Assembly (NCBI GenBank): GCA_000002435.2
Contig: CM018790.1
Source: Giardia intestinalis
Taxonomy: Eukaryota
Length of the DNA: 64,000 nt
Strand: one strand, 5' to 3'
How positions within the stretch are numbered: position 1 is the stretch's first letter; each line of letters starts with the position of its first letter. The position numbers and the translations under genes were made by a program. Below are positions 7,479 to 36,676 of this stretch, piece by piece. The notes under the pieces are model-generated. The model was not told the DNA's origin. It worked only from the letters and a program-made list of their open reading frames with translations, and did no database searches.

Positions 7479-9140
7479 ATGCAGGAGGAGGACTCTGCAG
7501 ACGCTCTGTTCCTCTCGCCAAATGCGAAGGGTTACATGGACAGCCTGCGTAAGGAGGGTCTCATAGTCAAACGAGATACAAACATAAAGCACCTCAACAA
7601 CTCTCCCTTGTACTACACCATCCGCCTCATCCTAATTATCTACCTAGTCACCTTCATTTTAGCAACCATTTATAACGCATCCGATTTGCTTTTTTGTTAC
7701 CTCCAGGCGCCAGTTCACAGCATTCGCATAAGAAATACTTCCCTGCCTACGGAGAATAAAGGCTTCCTGTTTAACGCATCAAGCTATCACCCAGGAGAAA
7801 CTATAGCATATTATTTGCAAGGATACCTGAAGGACGTCAACATCGTTGTTCTCGAGCCGTATGGTTTGAATACCAACTACGAACCCAACAGTATTGAGGA
7901 AAAACAAAATTATCTAATTAACATCGATCCAAATGTTACCCCACGCTTGATTCAAGGAGCGTTTCCAATGGCTATCGTGATGAACGGCACCAATAGTGCA
8001 GATCCTGCACACAGCATATGCATGGACTCCCTGTGGTTTACCACGTTTCCAAAGGCATCTGTCAGGCCCACAGATGGCGGTATTGCGGCTAGTGTCGATA
8101 TCCTCAACCCTAACAGAAAGCGTATATGGGTTAACTCCATGTGGTATAGCTTCTCATATTGGAGTAGCGTGGAGAGCATATACAGCGACACCAGGTTTAC
8201 GGACGACCAGAAGAAAGCACATGGTATACCAAATCTTTCAGACGTCCCCAAGACTAATTATTACTGTACAACACAAATATCCAGCATTCTTCCCAGTCAG
8301 TACAACAAGTCTAATGTTCCCATCTGGTTTATGAACCTTAGCGAAGCTTCTACTGCTAGACTAAAGGGAATTATCTGCTCTAGTAACTATGGATTAGTCC
8401 TCAATTTATCAACGTGGTTCTGCATTTCGCCTCTTCTAATTTATGACTTACGCCTGAAAAAAGTTATGCTATCTAATGTAACCTTTAACGGTAACTTAGT
8501 TTTAGATTTTAGAACAGACGAAAAAGATTCATCTATTACTCCCGAGACATTTTCCTGCTTACATCCTGAGGAATTCTATATACCATATAACTTAATATTG
8601 AATAACTCTTCTCTTAGAATCATGACGGTAACAAAAGACATTAAAGAGCTCGTCATAGACTCCTTTGGCCAATCCAGTTTTACATTCACTATTCCAAAGC
8701 GTGTGCTTACGTGTACACCAGGTAACATTTCACTTGGGGCACCCATTGCTGCCAACGAAGAGCCGTGCAGGCTAGAATTCAGTGGAATCTCTGGCGAGTC
8801 CTACTTTACTGGAGACTTTCACAGATACTACTCGGCTAGATACATAGCACCCTTGAACAAGCTCACTGAGCTCACGGTTGTTGTTAATCTCCATGTCTTG
8901 GACGATTTGACTCTTTCATTTCCATTTTGTTCGTCAAAGGTTACCCCAAAGTTTCCTTTGAACGTAATGGACTCTAGAAATAATGCAATTTTTTCACTTG
9001 ATTATGTTGAGGATGCAGAGATTGTATTTAAGGGTGCTTCTTCTAACACAGTAGGCCAACACTTTGTTGCTACAGTCACCTGCGACGGGGCGGGGCGGGG
9101 GTTCACGCTCGCGCTCCGGGCGCAGCCAGCCAGGCAGTAA
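7479..9140 (+). CDS. Type II membrane, N-glycosylation-site-rich hypothetical protein (553 aa); the last 23 codons lie inside the palindrome arm
   Basis: ATG at 7479 (aagATGcag); the track start 7458 is GTG. A single hydrophobic segment sits near the N-terminus ([22 protein letters not shown]) and there are many NxS/T sequons. The C-terminus ...[22 protein letters not shown] is encoded from 9071 onward by the inverted-repeat arm. The stop is embedded in AGTAAAC. Confidence 0.5.
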
Positions 9141-9142
9141 AC
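9136..9142 (+). promoter_or_regulatory. Giardia-type polyadenylation signal AGTAAAC overlapping the stop codon of the 553-aa gene (mirrored at 35561..35567 on the minus strand)
   Basis: AGTRAAY consensus, gcAGTAAACgagg, with the TAA stop at 9138..9140. Confidence 0.5.
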
Positions 9143-9218
9143 GAGGACACGAGGCGCCGCTCCCGGGCCACACAACACGGTACTCTGCCATCTGTTCTGG
9201 TATTTTTCTCCGCTCCGA

Positions 9219-9291
9219 GGGCGGTTAGCTCAGTTGGTAGAGCGCTTGCCTAGCATGCAAGAGGCCGGGGGTTCAAATCCCTCATCGTCCA
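9219..9291 (+). tRNA. tRNA-Ala (anticodon AGC), 73 nt, no intron
   Basis: Manual cloverleaf fold: acceptor GGGCGGT/ATCGTCC with the G3:U70 Ala identity pair; D-arm GCTC-AGTTGGTA-GAGC; anticodon arm CTTGC-CTAGCAT-GCAAG (anticodon AGC); T-arm GGGGG-TTCAAAT-CCCTC; discriminator A. The track ORF 9230..9562 (-) overlapping it is spurious. Confidence 0.85.
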
Positions 9292-9991
9292 CTTTCCGTC
9301 CCGCTCCACCGCACGGCCTGCAGCTCAGCGCGCCCTTGTGGGGCCTTGTCGTGCTCGCTGGGGCGCTTCCTGTTAATTTCTGGGGCCTTGCTCTTCGCCG
9401 TAAATGACCGACCTTGACCATGTGTGCTGTTCTGTACATGCAGCAGCTAGTTGTGAGCCGCGCCATCACCCCGTGGACGACCGTGGTCTGCAGCTTGTTC
9501 AGCGCAGCTTTCACTCGTTCTTGTAAGTATAAAGGCGCGCAAATCATCTCCCTGTTAGTCAATATACTCAGCTAGTGGGTCTACAGTGTGCCGAGACTAA
9601 AGCTCGTTGTAGAATTTATTGCAGGCATACTTAGAAGCACACAGGATCTTCACAGCGCACAGCACGAGTCTAAACTTATCTAGTGCTAAACTTTCGAAAA
9701 AAGACTGACAGTAGACTCGCTATCCCTGGTAAACGGGCATATATGTGTGAATAAAATACCAGTAAGGCTATGCAGAGCAGGGTCTACGTTGAAGAGGCCT
9801 GGATCTCGAAATGGAAAGAGAAAATAGAGCAAAAAAGTGAAGAATATTCTTCGAAAACAAGCGGCAGAAATAGTCCTAGATGCTAGATGAAGCATATCCT
9901 GGTCACAGAAGCCGCCGGCGACGCCAAATCACAACCGTTACGCTATATTAATGCATCAGATTGTGGCCATATATAATATTTGCAGAAGACC

Positions 9992-10945
9992 ATGGTTGGC
10001 TGCTGTCTATCACCCGCTGACCAAATTGAGGTCCTTCGTAAGCTAGCTGAAGAAGTTATCAGGGTACGAAAGATCCAAGAGACTGCAAATGATCTTGTTG
10101 CAAATCCTTACAGACTTTATACTTACGTTATAAAAACGTCTGTAAACTGGCGCAAAATTGCCACGGAGATCAACCAAAATCGCAACAGGATCTACCACTG
10201 GTACCGTGAAACGCATCTAAGAAACATTCTGAACATAAAGATGACAGAAGAAGATCGTCAGATTATCCGTGGAATTATCATAGATGGGATTGAAAGCAGA
10301 AGGATTGTGAGAGAAGACATCTATGGAAAGGTTCGCGAGAAATTTGGGAAAAAGTATCCACGCCAAGAATTGCGGATGACTTATAACAATATAATCAACA
10401 GCCGTAGTATCAAAACCCTCTTCAAGAAGTGCGGTATTCAGCATTCCTCGAGACGCAGCAGATCATGTGCGGCCATCCATCACCCATCTAGCGCAGAGCA
10501 GTGCCTCCCTAACGAGGAGGTGTTTAAACCACCCGTATTTCGCCTACCTGGTTACAATGATGAAACCCCATCTTCTCCTCAGGACGAAGACGAAACAGGG
10601 ACGTCTGTACCTGAGAACTCGCTATCTGCGCCACCAGAGTCTGTTGCTTGCAGCATTGTCGAGCCAAGGAACCTACCATCCAGCCTTTCCTTGGTTCCGC
10701 CCTTCGCGCCCACTCCTAGCGCTGCTCCGAATGTTTATCCGATCCCGGGTGTCTATCCGGCCCCTGGTGCCGTCCCTTATCTCCAGGCGTCGGGGGTGCT
10801 CAGTCTACAGCCGACGCCCTACCCCTTCGGCTTCGGGGTGCCGCTGACATACGTCCCTGTTCTGATACAATCGCCAGGACATACTGGCGGATGGCCCGTG
10901 GGCACGGGTGACGGTCCGCTCGGAAGGCCGACCAGGCAGCCCTGA
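9992..10945 (+). CDS. Myb/SANT-like DNA-binding protein with a proline-rich low-complexity C-terminus (317 aa)
   Basis: ATG at 9992 after atataatatttgcagaagaccATG; the track start 9980 is TTG. NWRKIATEINQNRNRIYHWYRETHL followed by MTEEDRQII fits the Myb-repeat pattern W..IA....R......W and the W-T-EED start of a second repeat. The C-terminal ~120 aa are P/G/Y-rich. Confidence 0.5.
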   Translation: MVGCCLSPADQIEVLRKLAEEVIRVRKIQETANDLVANPYRLYTYVIKTSVNWRKIATEINQNRNRIYHWYRETHLRNILNIKMTEEDRQIIRGIIIDGIESRRIVREDIYGKVREKFGKKYPRQELRMTYNNIINSRSIKTLFKKCGIQHSSRRSRSCAAIHHPSSAEQCLPNEEVFKPPVFRLPGYNDETPSSPQDEDETGTSVPENSLSAPPESVACSIVEPRNLPSSLSLVPPFAPTPSAAPNVYPIPGVYPAPGAVPYLQASGVLSLQPTPYPFGFGVPLTYVPVLIQSPGHTGGWPVGTGDGPLGRPTRQP

Positions 10946-12159
10946 GCCCCTGCTGCACCGCCTCGCACCAGAGGAGGAATCACGGTCTACAGCCAGAAGG
11001 GCAAAAGAGGCGCGTGGGTGGAAGCGCTCTCCCGATTTTCTTTTCGAGCTCGAACAGAACAGCCGTAGAGACTGTACGAAAACATCCTACAGTACCATCG
11101 AGGCCTCGCACGGAGGGGTTCTGAATGGACGAACGCCTAGGCTGGGAGCCATTCTAGAGCCGATTCTGGCCGAGGAAGGGGCTCCCCGCTTACGGGGGCA
11201 TGGCGGCTCCGCTGGCCACGTACGGCGACAGTTGCCGGGTCAGCGGCCCAGCCAAACCAGCGATGCCGCTGCGGAAGCCACCCCCGGCCCTGTCCCACAC
11301 AGTCGATGCCCTTGGCAGCCGCCTGCTCCAGTCCAGATCCACCCCACCGGCTGCGTGCCAGGGCCAGACATCTAGCAACCACAGAGACACGTCCACCGAG
11401 GCCGACACTGGCTGCACACACCGACCGGCGCGTCGATTCGAGGCACAGACGCGCATTTTTTCTTTTGTCCGGCGAGATTCCGGGCTGCGCTGGCTGCACG
11501 GATGCACGCAGCTGTTCCGCGCCGGCCGGGGCTTTCCGAGGCAGGCCTTGCGCGAGAACGCGACGTCTCGTGCAGGTCCACCGACCCTCTGGCGGGCCCA
11601 CGGCCGCGGAGTGTCCGTCCCTGTTGCGATGCAGTGCACACGGCTTTGTAGCACGTGCAGAGACCCAGTTGCCCTGCCCTGGCTGTGGCTCCTGCGCGCT
11701 GCGGCCAGCCACTGAGACCAGCCCCCATTGGAGCAGGCCACGGCAGGGCCCGCCGGACAAGCTCTCTACATGAGCACATGCTGCACAGCTTAGAGGCGAA
11801 CGCTGCACAGCCCGGCTAGTGCTCGCTGCCCCTATCGCTGCGTGGTACCTCTTCGTGAGACGACTGCGCAAGGCCACCCGATCGAGGGCTACGGCAGGAC
11901 GCAAAGAGTGGACTAGTTCAGGGCGTTGTGCATCTAGTAGGCCTGTGAGTACGCCTAGGTCGTGTATAGCTATTACATCAACATACTCATGTAGGTGGAT
12001 ACAACTGATTGCTCCGAATGGACTGGTTCTTGATGGCGTGGGCTGATGGAAGGACGCATTTGTATTACAGGTCCAAGCATAGAGGGTGGCAGCAGGAAAC
12101 GAAAAGTGGCCTGATTGCTGGTGTGCAGGTAAATGCAGCTATTTACATTTGACTTACCT

Positions 12160-12700
12160 AGCATACTGGATGATCATACTGATTGGATTCCGATAAAATG
12201 CATGCACGAGACTTACTGGTGTCTACTGATTTAAGAATTGAATGAGCAAACGCTAGGATAAGCTTGGTATGCCAATAGATAAATCACATTTAGGGAGGTA
12301 ACAATGAAATTTGTAGGAATAAAGAGACGCTCATAATATGCTGTTTCGATGATAGTAAAGGCTCTAGCACGAAGTTCATTAATCTATTATCAACAGAGAT
12401 AATAAGAAATCCAGGAGAAATGATAGCGAATCTATAATACACCCCATAAAAGGCTATAAGCACTATGGGATAATTAAGAAATGTGAAGGATATACCAGAG
12501 AATGTTATTTAAAAGGAAAGAAGTGCGTATTCAAAATCAGCAATAGTAACAAGGATAGCCTCGTTGCCAAGGATTCCATCACTGTCATCCTTATTGTCAA
12601 CCTTTCTGTCAGAGGTTCTTTTACTGTAGGAAAGTATAAACATAATCATCTATTTAAGTGGTAAACGCATCGTCTAACATCTGCTCAGCAGCCTTACACA
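12160..12700. other. ~0.5 kb A/T-rich island with no ORF inside the otherwise GC-rich arm (mirror 32003..32543)
   Basis: Abrupt composition shift visible by eye; stop-codon-dense in all frames. Confidence 0.4.
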
Positions 12701-13104
12701 GAAGTCCCGAAATAAGTAGTCACGGGGCAGAGTCTCCTGACGCTGCCAAATAAGCATATATAGTGCTCCCTCTGCATGGAGCACTGGAGGCCCGGCACGG
12801 AGTGGCCACAACTTCTCGTGGATACAGGCTGGTCGAAGCCGCTGGTGGCTGTATCCTCCAACCCCCTGCTTCAGAGCGTGGCTGCGCATGCTCTGCACGG
12901 CGCCTTCTCCTGCAGTGTCCGTGCGCTCGCCGGATGGAGCGAACCCAGCTAGCTACGCGGCCGCCACTGCAGGCCCCTCTTCACCCTGTATGCAGAAGCG
13001 CTGACCCGGGAAGAGGTGTCCCAGGGAGCCACGGGCAGCTGGTTGGAGTGAAACACGTTGGGACTTTTTGAAAATGGCCCTGTCCCGTGCCGGCCACGCG
13101 GCCT

Positions 13105-13725
13105 CTAGACCAGCGAGGCGAGGAGCTTCTTGATCCCTGGGCGCGCACGGTAGCCATCAGATAGCTCGCGCAGCGGTGGAAACTGGTCCACGAGCTCCGG
13201 ATACTCTGCGTCCGCATAATACAGGACCTCCAGGACCGCGTAGTCCGAATAGAGCGGCTCGGGAGCCAGGCTCCGGAGGCTCAGCACGTCCCGGGTCAGA
13301 ACGGTCAATCCCGGAAGGATCCTGTTCTGTCGGTAGGCCGCGATGCACTCCGAGCGCGTCATCTCTGCCCCAGCGGCAAGGGCCTCTGCCACGGCTTCGG
13401 GCTCCTTCCAGACGGCGGCAAGAAGATCCTCACAGAAGAGCACCAGGGCCCGCGCAGCAGCCTGCACCTGCAATGACGTGCTGTACCGCCCCAGGCTCGC
13501 CCCCAGGTACTCTAGAATGACCATGCCCCCGGCCACCCGCGCTGCGCTGTCTTCCCACACGGGGAGCGTGCACGATGGTGCACCTACCTTCGCCGCGGCC
13601 ACCTGCTCAGCGCTCGCCAAGGGCGCCCACTCGTACCGTATCTCCAGGTCTGCGAGCAGGAGCCGGCACTTCAATGCGGTGCCCCGGGCGTCGTAGTACG
13701 TGAGTCTCGGCGGAACTACGTCCAT
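13105..13725 (-). CDS. Glutathione S-transferase-like protein (cytosolic Tyr-type, alpha/sigma-like), 206 aa
   Basis: MDVVPPRLTYYDARGTALKCRLLLADLEIRYEW aligns with the GST N-terminal motif (LTYFNMRGRAEIIRYIFAYLDIQYE in sigma-class HPGDS; [25 protein letters not shown] in alpha class), including the catalytic Tyr. TLPVWEDSAARVAGGMVILEYLGA matches the lPvle.dg..l.qS.AI..Yla block. The C-terminal helical domain ends ...PELVDQFPPLRELSDGYRARPGIKKLLAS. Internal ATG at 13723..13725 preceded by ggaagtaaaATG; the track ORF extends to 13773. Very GC-rich coding sequence. Confidence 0.6.
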   Translation of the reverse strand: MDVVPPRLTYYDARGTALKCRLLLADLEIRYEWAPLASAEQVAAAKVGAPSCTLPVWEDSAARVAGGMVILEYLGASLGRYSTSLQVQAAARALVLFCEDLLAAVWKEPEAVAEALAAGAEMTRSECIAAYRQNRILPGLTVLTRDVLSLRSLAPEPLYSDYAVLEVLYYADAEYPELVDQFPPLRELSDGYRARPGIKKLLASLV

Positions 13726-14803
13726 TTTACTTCCCCGGTGGGCTCGTATCAACCGTGCCAAGGTGCGAGGCAACCCCTGGCACGCGGGCCGCCTCTCCCA
13801 GGGGGAGATCCTTGGGTTTCAGTTTACAACCTGAGCACCAGCTTCGTGTAGCTGCTATGCATTGCTAGCTACTACTGCCTGCATAGATAGTGGTGGGGTT
13901 GGGGTGGACACTAGGCTGGCGCGGTTTATGGAGGTCGTCTGCCTCCCGGGTCGCTTGAACCTAGCCGGAGTCTTCCCATTGGACCCTCTAAGTCATATCA
14001 CGAATCATAGGACGGATAAACTAGCCCCTAGCGGGTCAAAAGGGTCGGCAGTGATCGCAGCCACTGTGTCACTCGAGGACCTGTTGAGGCCCGGGACTCT
14101 GCAGAAGCCCCTCACTAGCTCGGTCTTGAAGTCCACGCTCTTGTGTGCCAAGATCCACGTCTTGTTATGCGTGCCGTGCTTTCCAGTACAATCGTGCTTA
14201 TACTTGTCGCCCTCTCTAATGCAGCTTCTAATGCTACCATGACGGGAGTTCTCGCTGTTTTGTACTTCATGTTTGTCAACACGGCCTAGGTGCCCTGCTG
14301 TCTGCTCTGCAGTCGCTTTATCTCCTGCTAAAAGGAAGTGAGAGCTCTTGGGTATCCGGTAAGACGTCCGGGCAAACGCGATAATGCTTCGATGAGTGTA
14401 CGTTAGTCGCATCGGCACAGAGCGCGTGCTAACCGGACGAAGCCATGTGCCTGCTGACTTCTATACAATATTCTAAGGCTATCCGGTCTCTGCATGGCAC
14501 CGCCAGGTGTGTAGTGGGGCCTGTGGCCATTAAGACCCAGAAGAGCCTCTTCTCCTACTTGGCTTCGGAGTCACTCCCAGTAGAGTATTGTTATGAGGCT
14601 GGTGTGCAGAGAAACACCGAATAGTTTGTACCGGTACACATGACCCCTTATCCCCAGACGGCACTCGCCATGGCTAGGCATTCGTAGAACCGCAGCATCG
14701 TGGGCTTGTGCACCGCTCACTGCCCATGCACGTGTAGCTGCAGACACACAAGCCAGTCGAGAGGCGCTTGCTTGCCCGGCTCCCTCATCACTGTTCAGAA
14801 CAT

Positions 14804-16466
14804 CGAACTCCTTATGCGAGCCACCGCCGCCCTGGGCAAGCGGGTCTCCCTCATCCCTGCATCAACCAAGATCAAAACCTAGAGTTCGAACTCAGGTGTC
14901 AAGCGACTCTGGTGGGAGAAAAAGAACTTTTGTTCTGCCCTCTTCCCAAGAACGAGACAGGACAACCACGATCAGGGGACGATCATGATACGCTCCACAA
15001 GGCAGCCCCGAGCCGCCTGGAGACCAGACCCTGGCCTTCCTCGAGACCTAGCAGATTGCGTTCCACTGGATGTACATGGGTGGCGTTTGCATGGCGCAGG
15101 GAGACGCAGGCTGATGGGTACAGCGGTCTTGCTCGACATAATGAACTCCAACAGTAGACGGCCTCTGCCAGGCGAGTGTGCCCCGTCCCGAGGAGCTGCG
15201 TCGGGGCCTTCCTCCGGCTGCGACACACGAGGTATCTGGACTCGGTCCCTCAGGGCCCTGCGCATGCTTCTGTGCTGCGGGAGACAGAACCTGCTCGCCA
15301 GGAGCTGAAGGAGAGGCCCCGCTCAGTACCCATGCCGACGACACATTCAGCTTCCATAGTGACGACAAGCCTGGCGAAACGCTATAGCTCGACGGTCAAC
15401 ACTGGGTGTGGGAGCACTGAGGGGCAGGAGGCCTCCTTTCTAACTAGTCTCGAAGGAGCTTCCAAGACAACGAAGAGCCGAAGCTAGTGATGATGCGCCG
15501 ATCATTTGCCACGCTTGTCGAGATGGACCCACACGTGACCTATGTGAATCCCTCGACAGGCAAGTCGGCCCTTGGGGTGCTTGGCTGACAGAGGCGGACT
15601 GATCCCGACCGCACCGAAGAGTGGTAGCGGCTTGGACCACCTGCCGGGCGTCTGCCGCAGTAGCTGGCAGTGTCTGACATCCTCGAGTAGATGGGCGCCA
15701 AGCGAGACGGCCTGAGGGTGAACCAGTCCTGACCGCTCCCGGTGTCTCAGACGACGCCTCTTAGAGAGGTGGCCCTGGACCGACGCCTCGACAGACCGAA
15801 GCATCACCCCAGGTGTGCTGTGCGGTGTGAAGACGGACGTAGTCCGCATCGTCAGCTGAGCCAGACGCACTGCACAGGGTGAGCGTCGACATGATCTCGT
15901 GCTAGGTGATGGACCACCTGCAAGAGCGCACTGCGATCCATGGGCAGAGGGATGGGCCTCTTCCCCGACACCACCGCATGGGATTACTCCATCGGCATCC
16001 ATGAACGCGTACTCTGACTCCAAGACAGAGGCGTACGGGGGGCGCGCTCTCCCGGTCATACTCGGGACCGATGATACAATCCACGAGGAGACGAAGAGGC
16101 ACCCCGAGGAACGGGGTAGACACCCGGGGTCGTGGCGTATCCCATCTTCGTCGTAGAGCATCAGCGCCACAAAGCTACTCCGGAGTACATGGCCAGAGTC
16201 AAGCTTCCAAGGCCAGATCCTGTGACCGACGGCAGGCCCTGATATAGCGGGTGTCCACCCAGGTGCCAGACGATAGTTGACTCCGATGGGTCAGAGGAAG
16301 GGAAGTCCTAGAGGGCACCGCGAGGAGCGGCAGCTTCCAGGGGAAGCGGGAATAGGAGTTCTTCCGCCGGGATCAAGGGCATCCGCCTCTCGAACTCTGG
16401 ATTTGGATCTCGGCTGGTACAGGGGCGAGAGAGACTCGCTTGCCCAGGGTGGCGGTGGCTCGCATG
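14804..16466. mobile_element. Candidate non-autonomous element (~1.66 kb) bounded by ~80-bp terminal inverted repeats (mirror copy 28237..29899)
   Basis: 14804..14883 (atgcgagccaccgccgccctgggcaagcgggtctccctcatccctgcatcaaccaagatcaaaacctagagttcgaa) and the reverse complement of 16388..16466 align at roughly 85% identity. Each TIR carries a GC hairpin (GCGAG-AGAGA-CTCGC) and a GAGTTCGA(A/G) box. No convincing ORF inside and no clear target-site duplication. Confidence 0.35.
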
Positions 16467-19400
16467 GGAAGATTACTCAGATAGCAGGCGACAGCCCCAC
16501 CCCGGCTAAAAAACTTGAGGCAGCCGTTGCACCCGCCGCCCCCAGGACAGAGCTTCTGCACGCATGGCCAGCTGCCCTCGTCAGTCCGGTCTACTGGTCC
16601 AATAGTCTGGGGACCCTTTACGCCGTTTTCTGGCATACGATGTATCGCAACTGCTCATGGGAGTAAGCAGTATGAAAAGGCAATTGCATGTGTGGACAGC
16701 GTGTTATGCTCGTCTCAGAGGACCGATGTGTCTAAATACGGATCGCTGTACTGAGCCACACGCCCCACTGTCTTGCGCCAGTGACTGCCTCCACCACTGC
16801 ACTTGCTACAATGGAGCTGTGTCGGCCCAACAGATTGAACATGCCCCATATCGGCTCCCTCTGACGATGCGTACACGCCGCATAAGGTCTGATAGTAGAG
16901 CGGACACCGTGTGCCGAGGCGTCTGCCATTGATGGGAGACAGCACTTGGTTGCACCAGAGGTGCCTTTATGTAGGCCTACAATCTCTGTGCCTGCCCATC
17001 CACCGGTTGTAATGACAACTGCACACTCGGAAAGGCGCTATGGAAAGCTGCCTTTCAAGATGAGACGTAAACCCACATATAAAGCCAGAAGCAGAACCTT
17101 GTGCACAAACTGTTATGATCCTAGTGTGGTGACCGGTTTGGACTGCGGCACGCTCCTCGCCTATCTTATGTTCGTTTGCATGGTCGCTGCTAATGTTGAA
17201 CAGGACTGCGAGGAGATCTGTCTTTGGCTGCGCTCATCTTATAACACTTACCCCTTGATGACACACCTTAGCAAAGGAGGATGTCAGCCAGGTGCGTAGA
17301 AGGCTGCCCGTGCATGACGATTCCTGGAGAACTGGTTCATACAGAGAAGGTAGAGGTGACTAGCGGACCAGTTGGGCAAGGCTGACACCAGAGAGGCCAG
17401 CCACCGACCTGGATTGCAATAGGGACGCCTGTAGTGTCTTTCTTCCCTTCGGGTGTAGAAAGGTCGTGAGGCCCGCGGACAAGCTAGACGCTGCTTTCTG
17501 ATTTTATGCATTTGTAGCAGCATAGTGTTTATAGGGGTCTGCTTTGCCTGAGGCCGAGGACGTTCGCTTCCTCCTCGTATACGGACGAAGATCGGTTATA
17601 AGGATACACTGTGCAGGCTGGTACCAGTCGACGTGGTTGCTGTCCACAAATGTCTCGCCTGCGTCTTCTCATGGCAGATGATTACTAGCAGCGCTCTCAG
17701 CCCACGTGGCTAAGTCTACGGTGCATCTCCATTTCGGTCAAGGGTTGTATACGCATTACGTAGTCTGATTGATCATCAGCCAGGATAGTGTGGTCCACTC
17801 CTGTCCCCTGCTTGTCCATCTCGTGCAACTACTGCTGATGGCTTTTCTGGGTCAGTGGGTGCTTCCGTCAGTCCCACAAAGGAATGTGTCATGCAGACGG
17901 CCACTACAGGCAAGAGTCTTGTCTATCAAGAAAAGGGTCAATCGGTTTACTGCGTGGGGATCCTCTGTGCGTCTCATATAAGCCCGGCAGACCTTGTGCC
18001 CCCAGTATCTCCTCACAAGCCCCACCAGGCTCTTTTACCGTCTGGAATATCGCTACTGCCAAGCACCTTAGCTTCACTTGGCCACCCAGGGCGTTGACCC
18101 TTTGCAGCGCACTGTGGGCGTACTCACTGTGGGAGATGCACAATCAGCATTGGTCTTCTCAGCTCATCGTCTGTATGGTACTATGCTGCTTCTCAGCACA
18201 ACCCATTCTGTCGACCAGCAGGCCTTCAGACCAGGCAGCATCCCACCAAGGGGCGGTAGCAGGGACCGTGACGCGTATCTCCACCAAGGCACGGCCTCCT
18301 GGGGCATGAAGCGGGACCTCTGCCATCCTGTGGCCCTACTGATTCCTCGGATAGCAGAGATCGGAGCAGCCTAGGCTAGCGCCTTTGGGTCTCCATCTGT
18401 TCTCGTTGTCTGAGGTATACTTGACTCCAGAGACTCAGAAGGGTGCTGTACTATGTTCGTGCCTACGAGTCTTAGCCAGGCAGGGCTACCCTCTTGGAGA
18501 TTGCGCTGAGGTAGCCACATACCTGGAGCTCACCACAGCGGACCCACAGGGTCCAATCCATGGAACCCTTACCTGTCGAATGCAGGCCGTAATTGCAGCC
18601 CCACTGGTGCAGACTTTCTTAGAATAACCGGTCGACTATAGAGCCCCCCCCCACTCAGTCCACGTGAATGGACCACTCTCATCGATGGCCTACCTTGCAC
18701 GCCGAACGATCCCTACAGGCGAACAAAAATCATCCAGCCCGTAGCAGTGGACATCCTCTACACCGATGAATGGATGATCACAGCAGCCGCTTTCCTATTG
18801 AAGATTCTCCAGCCACTGAGGCCCAGGCCGGCCTCCTGCAGGATTCTTAGCAGGATCGTGCCCGATGCATGTTTGTGGCACTCCCCTCAAGGTGTATTCT
18901 GTTGGACCTTCGCTTCCTATACTGGCCTGCGAACATCGAGCCCTTCTAGCGGGGCCATACTGGAGATCACAAGGATATGGTGTCTTCGGAGACTATCCGG
19001 CTTCTGAGCCACACAATAGGGGCCCACTTCTCGCAGCAGCATCACGGAGAGGTGTATAGAGCTATACCATACCCTCTACCAGGTGACATGATGCATAAAT
19101 TAAGGGTAGGACACTTACACCGATCGGCATATCTACCCATGACCAGACACAGATTGGCCCGAAGGTAGCAATTAAATGTTGCTCGACACCCTTATCAGTG
19201 GATGGGCGCCCAACTACCCTGGTACCCGTACGAGGCCACAAGGGGCGCTGGGTCATAGATCTACTTAATGGCTGAGAAAGCGGCATGGACGCATCAGACC
19301 CCCATTCTTTCTATTCAAGTAGCCCACGACAGAGAGCCCTTTGACACTCCACACCCACAGGTTCGGGGTGCTGCGGGCAATCGTACTCCACTATTGCTTG

Positions 19401-20223
19401 CAGCGGATGGCATCAGGATAACCTTGGGTGGGAGAGAGTTGACTGGCCCAGAAAGCAGCGGTTTGGATAGCGTTTCCTCTCTGCCCAGGCTTGGAAGGTC
19501 TAGCCTGCGCCTTCTGCGCTTCACCTGACACCTCGTTGTGTACTGGGGTGGCTTATTAGTATTTACTCCAAAAGATCAAAACTAGCGCCATGTGCACTTA
19601 GCAGGCCGGTGCGCCTCGTTAGCTAGTTTATGCTGGCTTACGCCTTCCACAGACTCTAGCGGCTGCTGGGATCTTCTCTCGGGATCCAGCAAAGGTTTGT
19701 CTTTGAGCGTAGCTCCCCTGCGACAGCAAAGGGTCGCGGGCATGATCTGGTGGGTGGGAATACTAGGAGCGGATAGGAGAGTGCCGGCATACATGGGCCC
19801 GTAGAGCTCTAACCAGCGCAGGGAAGTGCAGGTGTCTGGCTCTCCGGAAATGCAGAGGCGCCGGTAGCGGGCATGGGCACAGTGGGGGCGCCCGGGCTGT
19901 CCTCCGATTGGCCGCGGAGAAGGGGGATGCCCGGCGCACGGGACGGTTCTGCTGTTTGCTTTTAGAATTTCTACTTCCTTGCGTGCTTTGCAAGGAGTGC
20001 GGGGCTCCTCGGATGTCGCTTGGCCAGGCCTGGAGGGCCCGCGATGGACGAGGTGGTGGGCTTATATAATGAACGCGTTTGGCATTCGCTGGGCTCCTCC
20101 TTCCTAGACCGAGGTATCGTAGGAGTAGGGTCTCTTCGGACTACCTGCATAGCACAGTCAGATAGACGTTTTTAGCTCTAACTATCGGACTCTTATCTAT
20201 GTAATAAGCCGAGAGGGATATCA

Positions 20224-20991
20224 ATGTTACTCATAGCCTTCTACCTTGTGCTAAGTACGCTCGCTGTCCGGCATACAACAAATCACCACTCTGAATATCT
20301 ACGCTCGGGATCTCGGTCTAATAGAGATACAGGCAATCGTGATAATGCATATGCTGCAGGGAACTGCAAGGACGGGATGGAAGAGCAGGTCGGCGCGGAT
20401 ACCGTGTGCAAGCAGTGCAACGCAGGGTTTGTCCCCATAAACGGAGTCTGCACCGCACAGGGCACCCCATCAATTGCGACCGCAGGGTGCAAGCTGGCCA
20501 ATAATGACCCTCCTGGACAGGACTCCACTGTGTGTGAGCAGTGCGGAACAGACGCCACTTACTTCCTATACAAGGGCGGATGCTACGACGCCAGCACAGG
20601 CGTGGGGCAGAGCCTTTGTAAGCGCGCATCTAACGGAGCCTGCACAGAGGCGGGAGAAGGCTACTTTGCTGCACCAAACGCCAAGGCTACCGAGCAGTCT
20701 GTTATCCCGTGCTCGGACACGACAGGGGTGACTCTCACCGGAGATAAGCAATACGTGGGGGTGGAGAACTGCGCGACGTGTGATGCTCCAGCTGGAGATG
20801 AAACGGTAGCAAAATGTAAGACATGTAGTGACAGATTCAGTTTAAGAGACAACCAATGTGTGCCTTCTAGCGTCAACAAGAGCGGCCTTTCTACCGGCGC
20901 CATTGCGGGCATCGCCGTGGCTGCTGTCATAGTTGTTGGTGGTCTCGTTGGGTTCCTCTGCTGGTGGTTCCTCTGCCGGGGCAAGGCGTAG
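20224..20991 (+). CDS. vsp: Variant-specific surface protein (VSP), short form, 255 aa
   Basis: N-terminal signal peptide MLLIAFYLVLSTLA; four CXXC motifs (CKQC, CEQC, CATC, CKTC); GGCY motif (YKGGCYD); C-terminal TM helix IAGIAVAAVIVVGGLVGFLCWWFL; terminal CRGKA pentapeptide plus stop. AGTAAAC polyA signal 13 nt downstream. Confidence 0.92.
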   Translation: MLLIAFYLVLSTLAVRHTTNHHSEYLRSGSRSNRDTGNRDNAYAAGNCKDGMEEQVGADTVCKQCNAGFVPINGVCTAQGTPSIATAGCKLANNDPPGQDSTVCEQCGTDATYFLYKGGCYDASTGVGQSLCKRASNGACTEAGEGYFAAPNAKATEQSVIPCSDTTGVTLTGDKQYVGVENCATCDAPAGDETVAKCKTCSDRFSLRDNQCVPSSVNKSGLSTGAIAGIAVAAVIVVGGLVGFLCWWFLCRGKA

Positions 20992-21003
20992 ATGTACTTA
21001 GGT

Positions 21004-21010
21004 AGTAAAC
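21004..21010 (+). promoter_or_regulatory. AGTAAAC polyadenylation signal of the VSP gene (mirror 23693..23699 on the minus strand)
   Basis: ggcaaggcgTAGatgtacttaggtAGTAAACgcg. AGTRAAY lies just downstream of the stop. Confidence 0.55.
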
Positions 21011-21355
21011 GCGTTACTTTATGTAGCTTATGTAGATGTGCTGCTAGGCTCACTTGCTGGTGTGTCCAGAAGTTTCACGAGTAAATCCTCGTTCAAGTCC
21101 TGGCTGTCCAAAGACGAGAACTGATTGTGGATAACATGACGGAGAGTCCTCTCCAGTGATGCATCCAGAGCCTGGTGCGCTCCTCTGCCGTTTCGCAGGC
21201 GTGTGCTCAGGCTGAGTATGCACGTCGGTCCTTTCGGGGTTCAGGCCTTCTCGTGGACTCTCTGCTCTACCAGCGGTGTCTCTCCTTGGTCTTCCTTCAC
21301 GGTGGGTGAAGCTTGGATCGCCGTCTTTTTTAGATGCCCCGTCTGTCAGGGGCTG

Positions 21356-23347
21356 CCATCGGGCTCTCCGCTGGCCGCCCCTCGGTGTCCGTCCGGCTGT
21401 GTCCCGGGTCAGCGCTTCTACAGTCGCGGTCACGTAGGTCTCAGTGGGCCAGCTGGGGGGTGGGGCGGGGGTATGGGCGGTGAGGCTGGAGGGGACCGGG
21501 TGGGGGCTGAGGTGGGGTGTCCGTATGTGATCCTGGGTCCGGTGGGTCATTGCGGTGGTGGGTGATCCCCGCTCTGTTTGCTAAGGTGGTTGTGTCTGAT
21601 CACCAGCCTGCGTTGCACTCCCGAGACAGAGGCACCGACGATCGTGTCGTGTCCCCCGACTGAGCGCCTCCCTTAGCCCCTGCATGTCTCAGGCAGTACT
21701 GCTGCTCTGTCTGGCTGGTGCGTGAAGGGTGAGGCAGGCCATCGCAGCCCCTCCTGATGCTCTGCGCGGGTCTGCTGAGCCCCTGGCATGCCCTGTCCAG
21801 TGCCTCGACGGGGAGTTCGCCTCGGGCCAGCAGGGGTGTGGATGACCTTGTGAATGGGATGGGGTTCTCTCAGGCCTCTAGTGTGATGGCCCAGAAGACT
21901 GGCACGGTGGGGCACCAGTGACTGCACTGTCCCCGTGGTCAGCTGTGCTGCTCCTGGTGGGTCCTTGTCATGGAGCGCTGTGTGTTGTTCATAGGCAGAG
22001 GTGATCCCTCTTGGTCTCAAGATGCTCTACCAGCAGAGAGAAGCACGCTGAGGGTCACCCAACATCACCTGCTGTGTCCTCTTGGGAGTTCCCGATGTGA
22101 TCTATCAGGACCTTGACACCTCCTCGTGGCTCTGATGACCCCTCGGGGAGAGCCGGCATCCTATACTGAGGGGCGTACACCTTCCTGCATGAGCTGGGCC
22201 CCACTGCACTGCCCCCAAGGAGGTCTGCTATGAGAGGCAGTGGGATGATTGACAGCCCCTCAGAGTGCGGTGGAGGGTGCTCGTGGTCATCTCTGTGACC
22301 GGGCATCACTCATGATGGTCGGCTCTGTGCCTTATGGTGCTCAGAGACCACCTGTGCTCCATCGCCTGCTGGACAGCCGGGCCTCTTGTGGCGTCCGAAG
22401 GTCTCCTCACTCCTCTGGTCACTGCCCCCTCGGATCATCGGTGGAGGCCAGCGAGTCTTCGGAGTCTGGTGCCTGCCTGGGTGTCATGGGGGGCTGGCAG
22501 CTGTCAAGGCTCTGCCACTGCTCACCTGCCTGGAGTGTGCCTCCCTTGGGCCTGCTTTGCTGTGCTGCTTGAGTCCTCTGGCTTCTATCAGGCCCTGGTT
22601 GTGAGGGTGACCCCACCTGGCCTTCTGATGCCCCTGTGGATGAGCATAGCAATGTGTCTGGCTGGGGATCTCTAGTGCCCGTGTCTGTCACTGCCTCTCG
22701 GGTGCTCGGGTAGTTGCCTGGCGCTCTCGTATGGGCACACAGTCAGCGTATGTGGGTGGTCCTCCTGCACTCGTGTCCGTCTGTGTGCACTGTCACTCAG
22801 TCTCGAGAGCAGGCCAGTGCAGTCACCAGGGCTGCTGTCAGAGGGAGTCGTCTGCCACTACCATCGCTCGAGCAGCCCCTGCAGATCAGGCTGGTTGCTG
22901 TGCACCCTCATGGCAGGGCTGCTTGGCTCCCTTGGTCTCCTCTCTGTCCCGGTGTGCACGGCTCCTTCGGGTGGCTGACGGGGTAGTGGCCTCCGGTGAG
23001 TCTGCACTGGGAGGCACCGAGGAGGGAGGACAGCTAGGCTGGCACCACTCTCTGACTCCTGAGGGTTGCCTGGATGGAGGCACTCACGAGTCCACAGAGG
23101 GGTGAGTTATAGATACACAGCCCCCAGTCACCACAGCTGCGATCACCCCAGTCTATCGAGTGGCCAGGGGCACAGACAACACCGCTCCAATGGCCCACCA
23201 GTCCCCTCCAGCCTCACCGTCCCATACTCCCGCCCCACCCACCATCCGAACCCACTGAGACCCAGGTGACTGCGACCGTAGAGCGCTGACTCGAGTCACA
23301 GCCGGACGGACACCGAGGGGCCCAGCCAGGGGAGAGCCCCGACAGCA
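21356..23347. other. Central spacer of the palindrome (~2.0 kb, GC-rich): the outer ~200 bp on each side are a degenerate (~80% identity) palindrome and the core ~1.6 kb is unique and non-palindromic
   Basis: Direct comparison of 21356..21560 with the reverse complement of 23140..23347 shows substitutions and indels. The symmetry centre (22351/22352) is not self-complementary. Only short overlapping ORFs of the GC-rich type. Confidence 0.7.
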
Positions 23348-23711
23348 ATCACCGAGTCAGACGGGGCATCTAAAAAAGACGGCGATCCAAGCTTCACCCA
23401 CCGTGAAGGAAGACCAAGGAGAGACACCGCTGGTAGAGCAGAGAGTCCACGAGAAGGCCTGAACCCCGAAAGGACCGACGTGCATACTCAGCCTGAGCAC
23501 ACGCCTGCGAAACGGCAGAGGAGCGCACCAGGCTCTGGATGCATCACTGGAGAGGACTCTCCGTCATGTTATCCACAATCAGTTCTCGTCTTTGGACAGC
23601 CAGGACTTGAACGAGGATTTACTCGTGAAACTTCTGGACACACCAGCAAGTGAGCCTAGCAGCACATCTACATAAGCTACATAAAGTAACGCGTTTACTA
23701 CCTAAGTACAT

Positions 23712-24479
23712 CTACGCCTTGCCCCGGCAGAGGAACCACCAGCAGAGGAACCCAACGAGACCACCAACAACTATGACAGCAGCCACGGCGATGCCCGCAA
23801 TGGCGCCGGTAGAAAGGCCGCTCTTGTTGACGCTAGAAGGCACACATTGGTTGTCTCTTAAACTGAATCTGTCACTACATGTCTTACATTTTGCTACCGT
23901 TTCATCTCCAGCTGGAGCATCACACGTCGCGCAGTTCTCCACCCCCACGTATTGCTTATCTCCGGTGAGAGTCACCCCTGTCGTGTCCGAGCACGGGATA
24001 ACAGACTGCTCGGTAGCCTTGGCGTTTGGTGCAGCAAAGTAGCCTTCTCCCGCCTCTGTGCAGGCTCCGTTAGATGCGCGCTTACAAAGGCTCTGCCCCA
24101 CGCCTGTGCTGGCGTCGTAGCATCCGCCCTTGTATAGGAAGTAAGTGGCGTCTGTTCCGCACTGCTCACACACAGTGGAGTCCTGTCCAGGAGGGTCATT
24201 ATTGGCCAGCTTGCACCCTGCGGTCGCAATTGATGGGGTGCCCTGTGCGGTGCAGACTCCGTTTATGGGGACAAACCCTGCGTTGCACTGCTTGCACACG
24301 GTATCCGCGCCGACCTGCTCTTCCATCCCGTCCTTGCAGTTCCCTGCAGCATATGCATTATCACGATTGCCTGTATCTCTATTAGACCGAGATCCCGAGC
24401 GTAGATATTCAGAGTGGTGATTTGTTGTATGCCGGACAGCGAGCGTACTTAGCACAAGGTAGAAGGCTATGAGTAACAT
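23712..24479 (-). CDS. vsp: Variant-specific surface protein, second copy (identical protein), convergent with 20224..20991
   Basis: Identical 255-aa translation ending CRGKA. The 3' ends of the two copies face each other across 2720 bp. Confidence 0.92.
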   Translation of the reverse strand: MLLIAFYLVLSTLAVRHTTNHHSEYLRSGSRSNRDTGNRDNAYAAGNCKDGMEEQVGADTVCKQCNAGFVPINGVCTAQGTPSIATAGCKLANNDPPGQDSTVCEQCGTDATYFLYKGGCYDASTGVGQSLCKRASNGACTEAGEGYFAAPNAKATEQSVIPCSDTTGVTLTGDKQYVGVENCATCDAPAGDETVAKCKTCSDRFSLRDNQCVPSSVNKSGLSTGAIAGIAVAAVIVVGGLVGFLCWWFLCRGKA

Positions 24480-27400
24480 TGATATCCCTCTCGGCTTATT
24501 ACATAGATAAGAGTCCGATAGTTAGAGCTAAAAACGTCTATCTGACTGTGCTATGCAGGTAGTCCGAAGAGACCCTACTCCTACGATACCTCGGTCTAGG
24601 AAGGAGGAGCCCAGCGAATGCCAAACGCGTTCATTATATAAGCCCACCACCTCGTCCATCGCGGGCCCTCCAGGCCTGGCCAAGCGACATCCGAGGAGCC
24701 CCGCACTCCTTGCAAAGCACGCAAGGAAGTAGAAATTCTAAAAGCAAACAGCAGAACCGTCCCGTGCGCCGGGCATCCCCCTTCTCCGCGGCCAATCGGA
24801 GGACAGCCCGGGCGCCCCCACTGTGCCCATGCCCGCTACCGGCGCCTCTGCATTTCCGGAGAGCCAGACACCTGCACTTCCCTGCGCTGGTTAGAGCTCT
24901 ACGGGCCCATGTATGCCGGCACTCTCCTATCCGCTCCTAGTATTCCCACCCACCAGATCATGCCCGCGACCCTTTGCTGTCGCAGGGGAGCTACGCTCAA
25001 AGACAAACCTTTGCTGGATCCCGAGAGAAGATCCCAGCAGCCGCTAGAGTCTGTGGAAGGCGTAAGCCAGCATAAACTAGCTAACGAGGCGCACCGGCCT
25101 GCTAAGTGCACATGGCGCTAGTTTTGATCTTTTGGAGTAAATACTAATAAGCCACCCCAGTACACAACGAGGTGTCAGGTGAAGCGCAGAAGGCGCAGGC
25201 TAGACCTTCCAAGCCTGGGCAGAGAGGAAACGCTATCCAAACCGCTGCTTTCTGGGCCAGTCAACTCTCTCCCACCCAAGGTTATCCTGATGCCATCCGC
25301 TGCAAGCAATAGTGGAGTACGATTGCCCGCAGCACCCCGAACCTGTGGGTGTGGAGTGTCAAAGGGCTCTCTGTCGTGGGCTACTTGAATAGAAAGAATG
25401 GGGGTCTGATGCGTCCATGCCGCTTTCTCAGCCATTAAGTAGATCTATGACCCAGCGCCCCTTGTGGCCTCGTACGGGTACCAGGGTAGTTGGGCGCCCA
25501 TCCACTGATAAGGGTGTCGAGCAACATTTAATTGCTACCTTCGGGCCAATCTGTGTCTGGTCATGGGTAGATATGCCGATCGGTGTAAGTGTCCTACCCT
25601 TAATTTATGCATCATGTCACCTGGTAGAGGGTATGGTATAGCTCTATACACCTCTCCGTGATGCTGCTGCGAGAAGTGGGCCCCTATTGTGTGGCTCAGA
25701 AGCCGGATAGTCTCCGAAGACACCATATCCTTGTGATCTCCAGTATGGCCCCGCTAGAAGGGCTCGATGTTCGCAGGCCAGTATAGGAAGCGAAGGTCCA
25801 ACAGAATACACCTTGAGGGGAGTGCCACAAACATGCATCGGGCACGATCCTGCTAAGAATCCTGCAGGAGGCCGGCCTGGGCCTCAGTGGCTGGAGAATC
25901 TTCAATAGGAAAGCGGCTGCTGTGATCATCCATTCATCGGTGTAGAGGATGTCCACTGCTACGGGCTGGATGATTTTTGTTCGCCTGTAGGGATCGTTCG
26001 GCGTGCAAGGTAGGCCATCGATGAGAGTGGTCCATTCACGTGGACTGAGTGGGGGGGGGCTCTATAGTCGACCGGTTATTCTAAGAAAGTCTGCACCAGT
26101 GGGGCTGCAATTACGGCCTGCATTCGACAGGTAAGGGTTCCATGGATTGGACCCTGTGGGTCCGCTGTGGTGAGCTCCAGGTATGTGGCTACCTCAGCGC
26201 AATCTCCAAGAGGGTAGCCCTGCCTGGCTAAGACTCGTAGGCACGAACATAGTACAGCACCCTTCTGAGTCTCTGGAGTCAAGTATACCTCAGACAACGA
26301 GAACAGATGGAGACCCAAAGGCGCTAGCCTAGGCTGCTCCGATCTCTGCTATCCGAGGAATCAGTAGGGCCACAGGATGGCAGAGGTCCCGCTTCATGCC
26401 CCAGGAGGCCGTGCCTTGGTGGAGATACGCGTCACGGTCCCTGCTACCGCCCCTTGGTGGGATGCTGCCTGGTCTGAAGGCCTGCTGGTCGACAGAATGG
26501 GTTGTGCTGAGAAGCAGCATAGTACCATACAGACGATGAGCTGAGAAGACCAATGCTGATTGTGCATCTCCCACAGTGAGTACGCCCACAGTGCGCTGCA
26601 AAGGGTCAACGCCCTGGGTGGCCAAGTGAAGCTAAGGTGCTTGGCAGTAGCGATATTCCAGACGGTAAAAGAGCCTGGTGGGGCTTGTGAGGAGATACTG
26701 GGGGCACAAGGTCTGCCGGGCTTATATGAGACGCACAGAGGATCCCCACGCAGTAAACCGATTGACCCTTTTCTTGATAGACAAGACTCTTGCCTGTAGT
26801 GGCCGTCTGCATGACACATTCCTTTGTGGGACTGACGGAAGCACCCACTGACCCAGAAAAGCCATCAGCAGTAGTTGCACGAGATGGACAAGCAGGGGAC
26901 AGGAGTGGACCACACTATCCTGGCTGATGATCAATCAGACTACGTAATGCGTATACAACCCTTGACCGAAATGGAGATGCACCGTAGACTTAGCCACGTG
27001 GGCTGAGAGCGCTGCTAGTAATCATCTGCCATGAGAAGACGCAGGCGAGACATTTGTGGACAGCAACCACGTCGACTGGTACCAGCCTGCACAGTGTATC
27101 CTTATAACCGATCTTCGTCCGTATACGAGGAGGAAGCGAACGTCCTCGGCCTCAGGCAAAGCAGACCCCTATAAACACTATGCTGCTACAAATGCATAAA
27201 ATCAGAAAGCAGCGTCTAGCTTGTCCGCGGGCCTCACGACCTTTCTACACCCGAAGGGAAGAAAGACACTACAGGCGTCCCTATTGCAATCCAGGTCGGT
27301 GGCTGGCCTCTCTGGTGTCAGCCTTGCCCAACTGGTCCGCTAGTCACCTCTACCTTCTCTGTATGAACCAGTTCTCCAGGAATCGTCATGCACGGGCAGC

Positions 27401-30400: not shown

Positions 30401-30977
30401 GACAGCAGGGCACCTAGGCCGTGTTGACAAACATGAAGTACAAAACAGCGAGAACTCCCGTCATGGTAGCATTAGAAGCTGCATTAGAGAGGGCGACAAG
30501 TATAAGCACGATTGTACTGGAAAGCACGGCACGCATAACAAGACGTGGATCTTGGCACACAAGAGCGTGGACTTCAAGACCGAGCTAGTGAGGGGCTTCT
30601 GCAGAGTCCCGGGCCTCAACAGGTCCTCGAGTGACACAGTGGCTGCGATCACTGCCGACCCTTTTGACCCGCTAGGGGCTAGTTTATCCGTCCTATGATT
30701 CGTGATATGACTTAGAGGGTCCAATGGGAAGACTCCGGCTAGGTTCAAGCGACCCGGGAGGCAGACGACCTCCATAAACCGCGCCAGCCTAGTGTCCACC
30801 CCAACCCCACCACTATCTATGCAGGCAGTAGTAGCTAGCAATGCATAGCAGCTACACGAAGCTGGTGCTCAGGTTGTAAACTGAAACCCAAGGATCTCCC
30901 CCTGGGAGAGGCGGCCCGCGTGCCAGGGGTTGCCTCGCACCTTGGCACGGTTGATACGAGCCCACCGGGGAAGTAAA

Positions 30978-31598
30978 ATGGACGTAGTTCCGCCGAGACT
31001 CACGTACTACGACGCCCGGGGCACCGCATTGAAGTGCCGGCTCCTGCTCGCAGACCTGGAGATACGGTACGAGTGGGCGCCCTTGGCGAGCGCTGAGCAG
31101 GTGGCCGCGGCGAAGGTAGGTGCACCATCGTGCACGCTCCCCGTGTGGGAAGACAGCGCAGCGCGGGTGGCCGGGGGCATGGTCATTCTAGAGTACCTGG
31201 GGGCGAGCCTGGGGCGGTACAGCACGTCATTGCAGGTGCAGGCTGCTGCGCGGGCCCTGGTGCTCTTCTGTGAGGATCTTCTTGCCGCCGTCTGGAAGGA
31301 GCCCGAAGCCGTGGCAGAGGCCCTTGCCGCTGGGGCAGAGATGACGCGCTCGGAGTGCATCGCGGCCTACCGACAGAACAGGATCCTTCCGGGATTGACC
31401 GTTCTGACCCGGGACGTGCTGAGCCTCCGGAGCCTGGCTCCCGAGCCGCTCTATTCGGACTACGCGGTCCTGGAGGTCCTGTATTATGCGGACGCAGAGT
31501 ATCCGGAGCTCGTGGACCAGTTTCCACCGCTGCGCGAGCTATCTGATGGCTACCGTGCGCGCCCAGGGATCAAGAAGCTCCTCGCCTCGCTGGTCTAG
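30978..31598 (+). CDS. Glutathione S-transferase-like protein, second copy (identical protein)
   Basis: Mirror of 13105..13725. A single A/G difference (13063/31640) lies 42-45 nt beyond the stop in the 3' flank. Confidence 0.6.
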   Translation: MDVVPPRLTYYDARGTALKCRLLLADLEIRYEWAPLASAEQVAAAKVGAPSCTLPVWEDSAARVAGGMVILEYLGASLGRYSTSLQVQAAARALVLFCEDLLAAVWKEPEAVAEALAAGAEMTRSECIAAYRQNRILPGLTVLTRDVLSLRSLAPEPLYSDYAVLEVLYYADAEYPELVDQFPPLRELSDGYRARPGIKKLLASLV

Positions 31599-36669: not shown

Positions 36670-36676
36670 CAAAAAA

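Follow-up and report, generated by a model that had tools for sequence, protein, structure and literature searches.

A palindrome around a VSP gene pair in Giardia starts within the 3' end of a membrane protein gene and has matching junctions in several lineages

The borders of plastid inverted repeats lie inside genes, a truncated ycf1 or rps19 pseudogene is left at the other border, and the repeat moves in an "ebb and flow". Palindromes of the primate X and Y chromosomes have long arms, more than 99.9% identical, around a unique spacer; they are orthologous in diverged lineages, their arms are closer to each other within a lineage, and they are maintained by gene conversion from arm to arm (PMC3723533, PMC8327919). 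In Giardia, two identical genes for variant-specific surface proteins (VSPs) with a CRGKA tail may lie in inverted orientation, tail-to-tail or head-to-head, 2-4 kb apart, and the two copies diverge abruptly a few hundred nucleotides (nt) past the open reading frame (ORF). Such identical inverted pairs were suggested to be probably recent (Adam et al. 2010, PMC2996952), and duplicated neighbour genes, duplicated tRNAs, and duplications of up to 20 kbp have been published (PMC2996952, PMC7000408). Here, a stretch of 64,000 nt from chromosome 2 of Giardia intestinalis (G. duodenalis) WB (assembly GCA_000002435.2, contig CM018790.1; "the window") was analyzed. It contained a palindrome of about 26.6 kb with a VSP pair of this type at its centre, and the palindrome began inside the coding sequence (CDS) of GL50803_0061276, the gene of a type-II-like membrane protein of 553 amino acids (aa).

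The repeat search of the window returned exactly one inverted repeat, with the left arm at 9071-21345 and the right arm at 23358-35632. The arms, 12,275 nt each, were 100% complementary, a match beyond chance, and were separated by a unique spacer of 2,012 nt (21346-23357). The GL50803_0061276 gene occupied 7479-9140 of the plus strand, stop included (ATG at 7479, TAA at 9138-9140), and its product was 100% identical to KAE8302021.1. Repeat search and ORF coordinates placed the start of the left arm within this gene, 67 nt ahead of the TAA, as an earlier note on this DNA had claimed; position 9071 was the third base of the Ala codon 531. The note had attributed the last 23 codons to the arm. 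The tail and the stop were indeed supplied by the arm, but the complete codons numbered 22, and 23 is reached by counting the stop or the partial codon. The GC content of this 3' end (9071-9140, plus strand; 22 full codons and TAA) was 73%, compared with 42% in the gene body. The motif AGTAAAC at 9136-9142 (plus strand), which we take to be a putative polyadenylation signal of the Giardia AGTRAAY type, overlapped the stop and was borne by the arm, and its mirror copy at 35561-35567, also described in the note, was found in the sequence. Next to this second motif, the right arm carried an inverted relic of the last 70 nt of the gene (35563-35632, minus strand) and no gene body. The right arm ended at 35632, 45 nt ahead of the A in the ATG of GL50803_0010979 (35677-36669, plus strand; identical protein), which encodes a coiled-coil protein of 330 aa; this distance also agreed with the note. 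The 44 nt of unique sequence between the arm and the ATG (35633-35676, plus strand) were conserved in all lineages and would be a presumptive minimal promoter.

The outer junctions were found independently in A-type data. A MEGAHIT contig (k141) of an A-type Giardia stopped exactly 140 nt (k-1) into the left arm, and five Logan contigs (k31) began 29-30 nt (43 nt in one of them) within the right arm. Breaks at k-1 inside the arm are the behavior of a de Bruijn graph at one sequence that has two different neighbours. The inner boundary and the spacing were reproduced in the Sanger assembly of 2007/2010 and in the PacBio and optical-map assembly of 2020 (PMC2996952, PMC7000408). The outer junctions are not an artefact of the present assembly. 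Three Logan contigs (L003-5) spanned 9071 without a break; this continuity could be taken as evidence against the right-hand copy, but one of the three, L004, came from an RNA-seq run, in which the right junction is transcribed too weakly to branch the graph.

Separately, contigs were seen to halt at one place within the arm: L003-5 (k31) at 10624 and an A2-like SPAdes contig at the mirrored 10649. These shared stops near 10595-10650 of the window (mirror about 34053-34108) imply an additional repeat boundary at about 10595, within a 317-aa gene of the arm, and a third partial copy of about 10595-12161 may exist elsewhere in the genome.

The earlier note had also proposed that the palindrome inserted into, or formed at, the 3' end of the gene and created a chimeric C-terminus, and that the ancestral 3' end may have been lost. 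This was not supported, as the tail and the junctions were common to WB (sub-assemblage A1), A2, and assemblages E and B. In the ortholog alignment that the note had suggested, similarity did not stop at the boundary and continued to the stop codon in E and B, the genomes of which also have the repeat. The ortholog of P15 (assemblage E) was 87% identical and that of assemblage B 76%; both kept the C-terminus, and in both the DNA downstream of the gene stayed colinear past the tRNA-Ala and on into the gene for the 317-aa protein. The peptide pattern x-V-x-C-[DNE]-x-x-x-R-x-F-T-L-[AV]-L-[RK]-A-Q-P was held across A1, A2, E, and B, with synonymous or conservative changes, and the sequence CAGTAAACG at the stop and AGTAAAC showed no variation in these four and one divergent lineage. 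Among all 42-nt windows of the CDS, 9101-9142 had the highest three-way identity between A, E, and B (0.88, against a mean of 0.67 and a standard deviation of 0.10). Contig L004, derived from the WB1B trophozoite transcriptome (SRR2642202; PMC5224939), spanned 9071 unbranched, which places the gene body and the tail in one transcript context. By these comparisons, the tail is the best-conserved stretch of the gene and appears to be a working C-terminus, the left copy of which would be translated and under purifying selection.

Neither a Pfam domain nor a function was found for the 553-aa protein in the Pfam, structure, and family searches. Its family comprised 26 representatives at E<=0.001 and 13 at 1e-10, with conservation at C, H, N-x-T, W, and D positions. 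A model of the protein by AlphaFold2 (pTM 0.71) consisted of an N-terminal transmembrane helix and β-rich ectodomains; examined for a tail that forms an integral strand, it had a hairpin at 529-535/540-548, but this is untrustworthy because the pLDDT of residues 480-553 was 35-55. A scan of the JGI metagenomes with the conserved tail block gave 0 matches. In one B-like version of the protein, a fragment of 288 aa (P0021), the frame was shifted near the end and ran through the tail into the tRNA-Ala sequence (...VSSVGRALA); this is either an error of sequencing or assembly or an allele with a natural frameshift in the arm-derived tail.

The junctions were then compared between lineages. For A2, the left junction was found in an A2-like metagenome contig (L023) and the right junction in a contig of DH (L006, AHGT01000003.1). 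For E, the left (L001, ACVC01000052) and right (L025, ACVC01000055) junction contigs of P15 were 100% identical across 1,099 nt, and ACVC01000055 consisted of the reverse complement of the 330-aa gene followed by an arm of at least 9.8 kb with the 317-aa gene and a GST-like gene. For B, the left (L020, AHHH01000013) and right (L022, AHHH01000059) copies of GS_B were 100% identical across all the 350 nt available, and the copies in metagenomes (L002 and L018) were 99.9% identical across 1,101 nt. Two divergent lineages (ERR3333378-82 and SRR17450160), with 74-76% DNA identity to WB, had the right junction and the relic in contigs L013-17, which began just upstream of the 330-aa ortholog and included the inverted gene tail ...TTCACACTTGTGCTTAAGGCGCAGCCAGGCCAGTAAACG. 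In total, the left junction was found in A1, A2, E, and B, and the right junction fell on the identical nucleotide in one divergent lineage and in A1, A2, and E, with B no more than about 8 nt away. Since independent duplications would not strike the same nucleotide beside the same 44-nt flank, the junctions point to a single ancient duplication, and the palindrome is older than the radiation of the assemblages.

The annotation of the neighbouring gene was probably affected by the relic. The 330-aa ortholog is annotated with 357 or 381 aa in B (L018 2007-3080, L021 2152-3297, and L022 235-1380), where the called start sits upstream, inside the inverted relic; translation probably begins at the conserved AAAAATG that is used in A and gives 330 aa.

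Within each lineage, the arms resembled each other more than they resembled their counterparts elsewhere. When the left and right arm copies from A1, E, and B were aligned over their first ~1.1 kb, the identity matrix clustered them by lineage and not by side. The left and right copies were 100% identical in A1, 99.6% in E, 100% in B-GS, and 99.9% in the B metagenomes, whereas identity between lineages was 81% for A-E, 65% for A-B, and 96.7% for the two B sublineages. Lineage-specific changes were present on both sides: an A2-specific GGG>GCG change occurred in both A2 copies, and at a site that distinguishes GS (GGG) from the metagenome B (GAG), both copies of each carried their own state. 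This combination of 99.6-100% identity within lineages, 65-81% between assemblages, and sub-lineage SNPs in both arms shows concerted evolution of the arms, and one ancient duplication with homogenisation ever since is the sole economical reading. We infer that the homogenising process is intrachromosomal gene conversion from arm to arm.

GC-biased gene conversion was tried as the source of the step in composition at the boundary and was rejected. When A1/A2 changes were polarised with E, the arm had a W>S to S>W ratio of 30:38 and the flank one of 30:41, so that no GC-biased substitution specific to the arm was present in these small numbers. The GC-rich composition is regional, as both the arms (56%) and the spacer (63%) are GC-rich.

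The comparison with DH gave a further observation on divergence. A1 and A2 had diverged by ~2.6% over the outermost 3.09 kb of the palindrome arm (9071-12161) and by ~1.0% over the adjoining right flank (35633-44721); the faster divergence of the arm between lineages, in spite of the identity of its two copies, may just reflect weaker coding constraint.

The position at which the arms became identical was nearly, but not exactly, constant. Identity set in 67 nt ahead of the stop in A, 58 nt in E, and 72 nt in B; in both A1 and A2 it began at TACAGTC, 67 nt before the TAA. The right copy of E was homologous from the same point, with its outer 12 nt differing from the left copy at 4 positions, and its outer three codons read ACA ATC CGT (T-I-R) on the right versus ACC GTC ACT (T-V-T, as in A) on the left. 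In B, the repeat was ~5-8 nt longer and the right flank bore TTCAGCGCC, corresponding to the F-S-A codons of the B gene, at a place where the other lineages had a flank of the GATAAT type. A homologue of the relic was present in A2 (L006), E (L025), B (L018 and L022), and the two divergent lineages (L013 and L015-17), and in L015, from one of the latter, the right copy had AT-rich outer sequence and an in-frame TAG. The border thus shifts slightly, and in B at least the gene copy acts as the donor. The right copy would be a non-coding relic that degenerates where conversion fails to reach. A selected gene end on the left and a relic on the right fit both the asymmetric decay and the extension in B.

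To decide which side of the boundary is native, the locus was compared with G. muris. The ortholog of the 553-aa gene (GMRT_14239, P0023) lay beside the same divergently oriented tubulin gene, and no tRNA and no inverted repeat were found within 10 kb of it. None of the window genes of the right flank was near the G. muris ortholog; within 10 kb on either side, only the tubulin gene and the ortholog itself were in common. In the MAFFT alignment, G. muris had the motif T-[VI]-[TA]-C-[DN] at the boundary, a weak match without statistical support. In G. muris, the genes for Cluap1 (minus strand) and proteasome alpha (minus strand) were located 8.6 kb downstream of the ortholog, and in the DH contig the same pair (Cluap1 46.6% identical) was found 7.1 kb inside arm-like sequence in the same relative orientation. 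This synteny hints that the native place of the arm sequence is downstream of the gene for the 553-aa protein. We infer, with fairly good confidence in this polarity, that the left arm is native and that the repeat captured the end of the gene. Capture is favoured by the asymmetries between the copies, the conserved tail, the hint from synteny, and the fact that an end-point of a duplication within a gene end is costless while an insertion there is costly.

In the DH contig (L006, 1-6862), similarity to the WB arm ended 3.09 kb from the right junction (window 12161/32542), and beyond this point the contig ran into genes that the window lacks, for a 609-aa VSP, PGK, Cluap1, and proteasome alpha. 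P15 instead stayed with the arm of WB over 5.7 kb or more. The departure of DH is either a real rearrangement in A2 or a mis-join of the contig at the repeat.

Several points weigh against capture of a native gene end and the long conversion history proposed with it. The HMMER alignment of the G. muris ortholog reached position 462 of the 553-position profile and went no further, so the form that the last ~90 residues had in the ancestor is not directly seen. The argument from synteny is weakened because the DH contig leaves the WB-like arm after 3.09 kb and may be mis-joined. The GC content rose sharply at the boundary (from 42 to 73% in both A and B and from 36 to 66% in E), which gives the tail a foreign look for which, as described above, biased conversion offered no explanation; the chance of 22 open codons in such GC-rich DNA was about 0.3. 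A palindrome-free G. duodenalis genome was looked for and none was found. Arm identity outside WB was checked over the outer 0.35-2.3 kb only, and consensus calling in the older assemblies could mask a divergence of <1%, although not the 19-35% expected without conversion; these assemblies do separate the copies where the copies differ.

Some of these points would be expected if the tail were an ancient chimera. In this reading, formation of the palindrome in the ancestor of G. duodenalis cut the gene, and 22 codons of formerly non-coding (or right-arm) sequence that chanced to be open were later fixed and selected. The sharp GC step in A, E, and B, the unalignable C-terminus of G. muris, the lack of the tRNA-Ala and the 317-aa gene downstream of its ortholog, and an open frame that is not unlikely by chance all fit such an origin. 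We consider it unlikely, however, since no other stretch of the CDS is as conserved as the tail, the asymmetry of the decay and the direction in which the repeat was extended in B point to the gene copy as the donor, and insertion into a coding 3' end would be costlier than a copy end-point landing there. The boundary motif of G. muris, weak as it is, and the Cluap1/proteasome synteny, through which G. muris ties sequence of the arm side to the 553-aa gene, also speak against it. A duplication or insertion that took place recently in the WB lineage, the scenario implicit in the earlier note and in line with the published view of identical VSP pairs (PMC2996952), would explain the 100% identity of the arms over 12,275 nt, but it is very improbable given that both junctions are present in A2, E, and B, the right junction is present in two more lineages, and the arms have diverged by 19-35% between lineages, unless all of these contigs are mis-assembled. 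Even less credence can be given to a fold-back or a chimeric long-read assembly as the source of the palindrome or of its perfect identity. Perfect identity and a palindromic shape are typical of some long-read artefacts, and independent confirmation covered the arm only outside the interior from 10.6 to 20 kb; against this stand the unique 2-kb spacer, the graph branch points that coincide exactly with the two outer boundaries in separate Illumina data, the same inner boundary and spacing in the Sanger and PacBio assemblies, and the conservation of the junctions in other assemblages.

The explanation that we favour, and hold to be likely as a whole, is that the 553-aa gene has its own functional C-terminus. 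An inverted duplication would have occurred after the split from G. muris and before assemblages A, B, and E and the two further lineages diverged. The copied block would have begun within the last ~70 nt of the gene and continued through the tail, the stop with AGTAAAC, the tRNA-Ala, and the 317-aa gene onward, and the outer end of the inverted copy would have been set against the 44-nt upstream region of GL50803_0010979. An inverted duplication around a 2-kb spacer would be compatible with repair by fold-back or template switching, or with an inversion whose breaks were staggered. Since then, the arms would have been matched within each lineage by conversion while diverging between lineages at the normal rate. 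The border would be sharp because homology ends there, and it would creep by a few nucleotides per lineage. Mutations in the relic could be copied into the last 22 codons of the gene and vice versa, and selection on the tail may thereby constrain the relic. On balance, the locus is probably an ancient VSP-pair palindrome that was kept across species-level lineages, with 12-kb arms under continuous conversion and borders ebbing by a few nucleotides.

The arms contained further features in mirrored pairs. The tRNA-Ala(AGC) was located at 9219-9292 (plus strand) and 35411-35484 (minus strand) by ARAGORN and Rfam (RF00005, 68.4 bits for the left copy); its sequence was 100% conserved across A, E, and B, and the Rfam scan of the window gave nothing beyond these two copies. 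The gene of the 317-aa hypothetical protein followed at 9992-10945 (plus strand) and 33758-34711 (minus strand) and corresponds to the pair GL50803_00117192/117191, with the orthologs GLP15_4271 and DHA2_151571. The VSP gene, encoding 255 aa with a CRGKA tail (Pfam PF03302, 2e-30; exact protein KAE8302023.1), occupied 20224-20991 (plus strand), and its identical copy in the right arm occupied 23712-24479 (minus strand). The two VSP ORFs were tail-to-tail, 2,720-2,721 nt apart, and identity stopped 354 nt past the VSP stop. The pair d117204/117204, which is already annotated, thus forms the centre of the palindrome, because these figures for spacing and divergence equal those of vsp47, which has the same inner boundary and VSP spacing (Table 5 of PMC2996952), and of the chromosome 2 pair d117204/117204, which is tail-to-tail, 255 aa long, and 2720 bp apart (Table 2 of PMC7000408). 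In the latter table, all 12 tail-to-tail VSP pairs are separated by 2.5-2.8 kb, a uniformity that suggests a spacer element common to these pairs. The spacer itself (63% GC) had a strongly negative AT skew and a longest ORF of at most 166 aa, and no convincing ORF was seen in it.

Two more features of the arms were recorded. A GST-like ORF of 222 aa at 13105-13773 (minus strand), with its mirror at 30930-31598 (plus strand), matched the Pfam families GST_N_2 (6e-6) and GST_C_3 (3e-3) and was kept in P15, where it is a called gene with GST_N_2 (L025 13150-13794). Its exact sequence was missing from the protein collection, and the numbering of the WB accessions suggests that it is unannotated; it could be a gene that annotation missed, or a pseudogene. 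Each arm also contained a nested imperfect inverted repeat of 76 nt at 14814-14889 and 16390-16465 (mirror 28238-28313 and 29814-29889), 84% complementary and 1,500 nt apart, which flanked a 222-aa ORF at 15502-16170 (minus strand) without a Pfam match and might be the remains of a mobile element.

These results bear on annotation and on the evolution of VSP loci. GL50803_0061276 should be treated as intact, with no truncated or chimeric flag, and the 70-nt inverted copy beside GL50803_0010979 as a relic in which some B annotations of the neighbour (357 or 381 aa) probably start wrongly. The perfect identity of the arms of a VSP pair, read elsewhere as recency, would here reflect ongoing gene conversion, as the assemblages are 20-35% apart in this DNA. 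The findings bear on how copies are kept homogeneous in a tetraploid, apparently asexual parasite. If the proposed history is true, VSP palindromes would report naturally on mitotic or parasexual recombination in an organism without observed meiosis, and the C-terminus of a gene would co-evolve with a non-coding twin.

In its centre, the locus is the same as the described inverted VSP pairs of Giardia, and the duplicated 117191/117192 gene and tRNA fit the published duplicated regions of up to 20 kb. The earlier papers describe the pairs at the level of the VSPs, as probably recent (PMC2996952) or "duplicated", whereas the palindrome described here appears to be ancient and extends over 12.3 kb. 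Relative to these two papers, and within the part of the Giardia literature covered, the new elements are this 12.3-kb extent, the boundary in GL50803_0061276, the relic, the conservation across assemblages, and the concerted evolution. With the primate palindromes the locus shares long, nearly identical arms, a unique spacer, orthology in diverged lineages, and greater similarity of the arms within a lineage; it differs in its smaller, 12-kb arms, in its occurrence in an asexual-appearing tetraploid protist, and in carrying a gene pair for antigenic variation instead of testis genes, and a GC-biased substitution signal was not detected here. As at the borders of the plastid inverted repeat, the boundary falls in a coding region, a truncated, non-functional copy of the gene end is present on the other arm, and the border moves by a few nucleotides. 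Unlike the plastid repeat, the present one lies on a linear nuclear chromosome, a 2-kb spacer takes the place of the small single-copy region, and flip-flop isomers are not known for it. The features of this palindrome are new instances of well-known phenomena and not a new kind of system.

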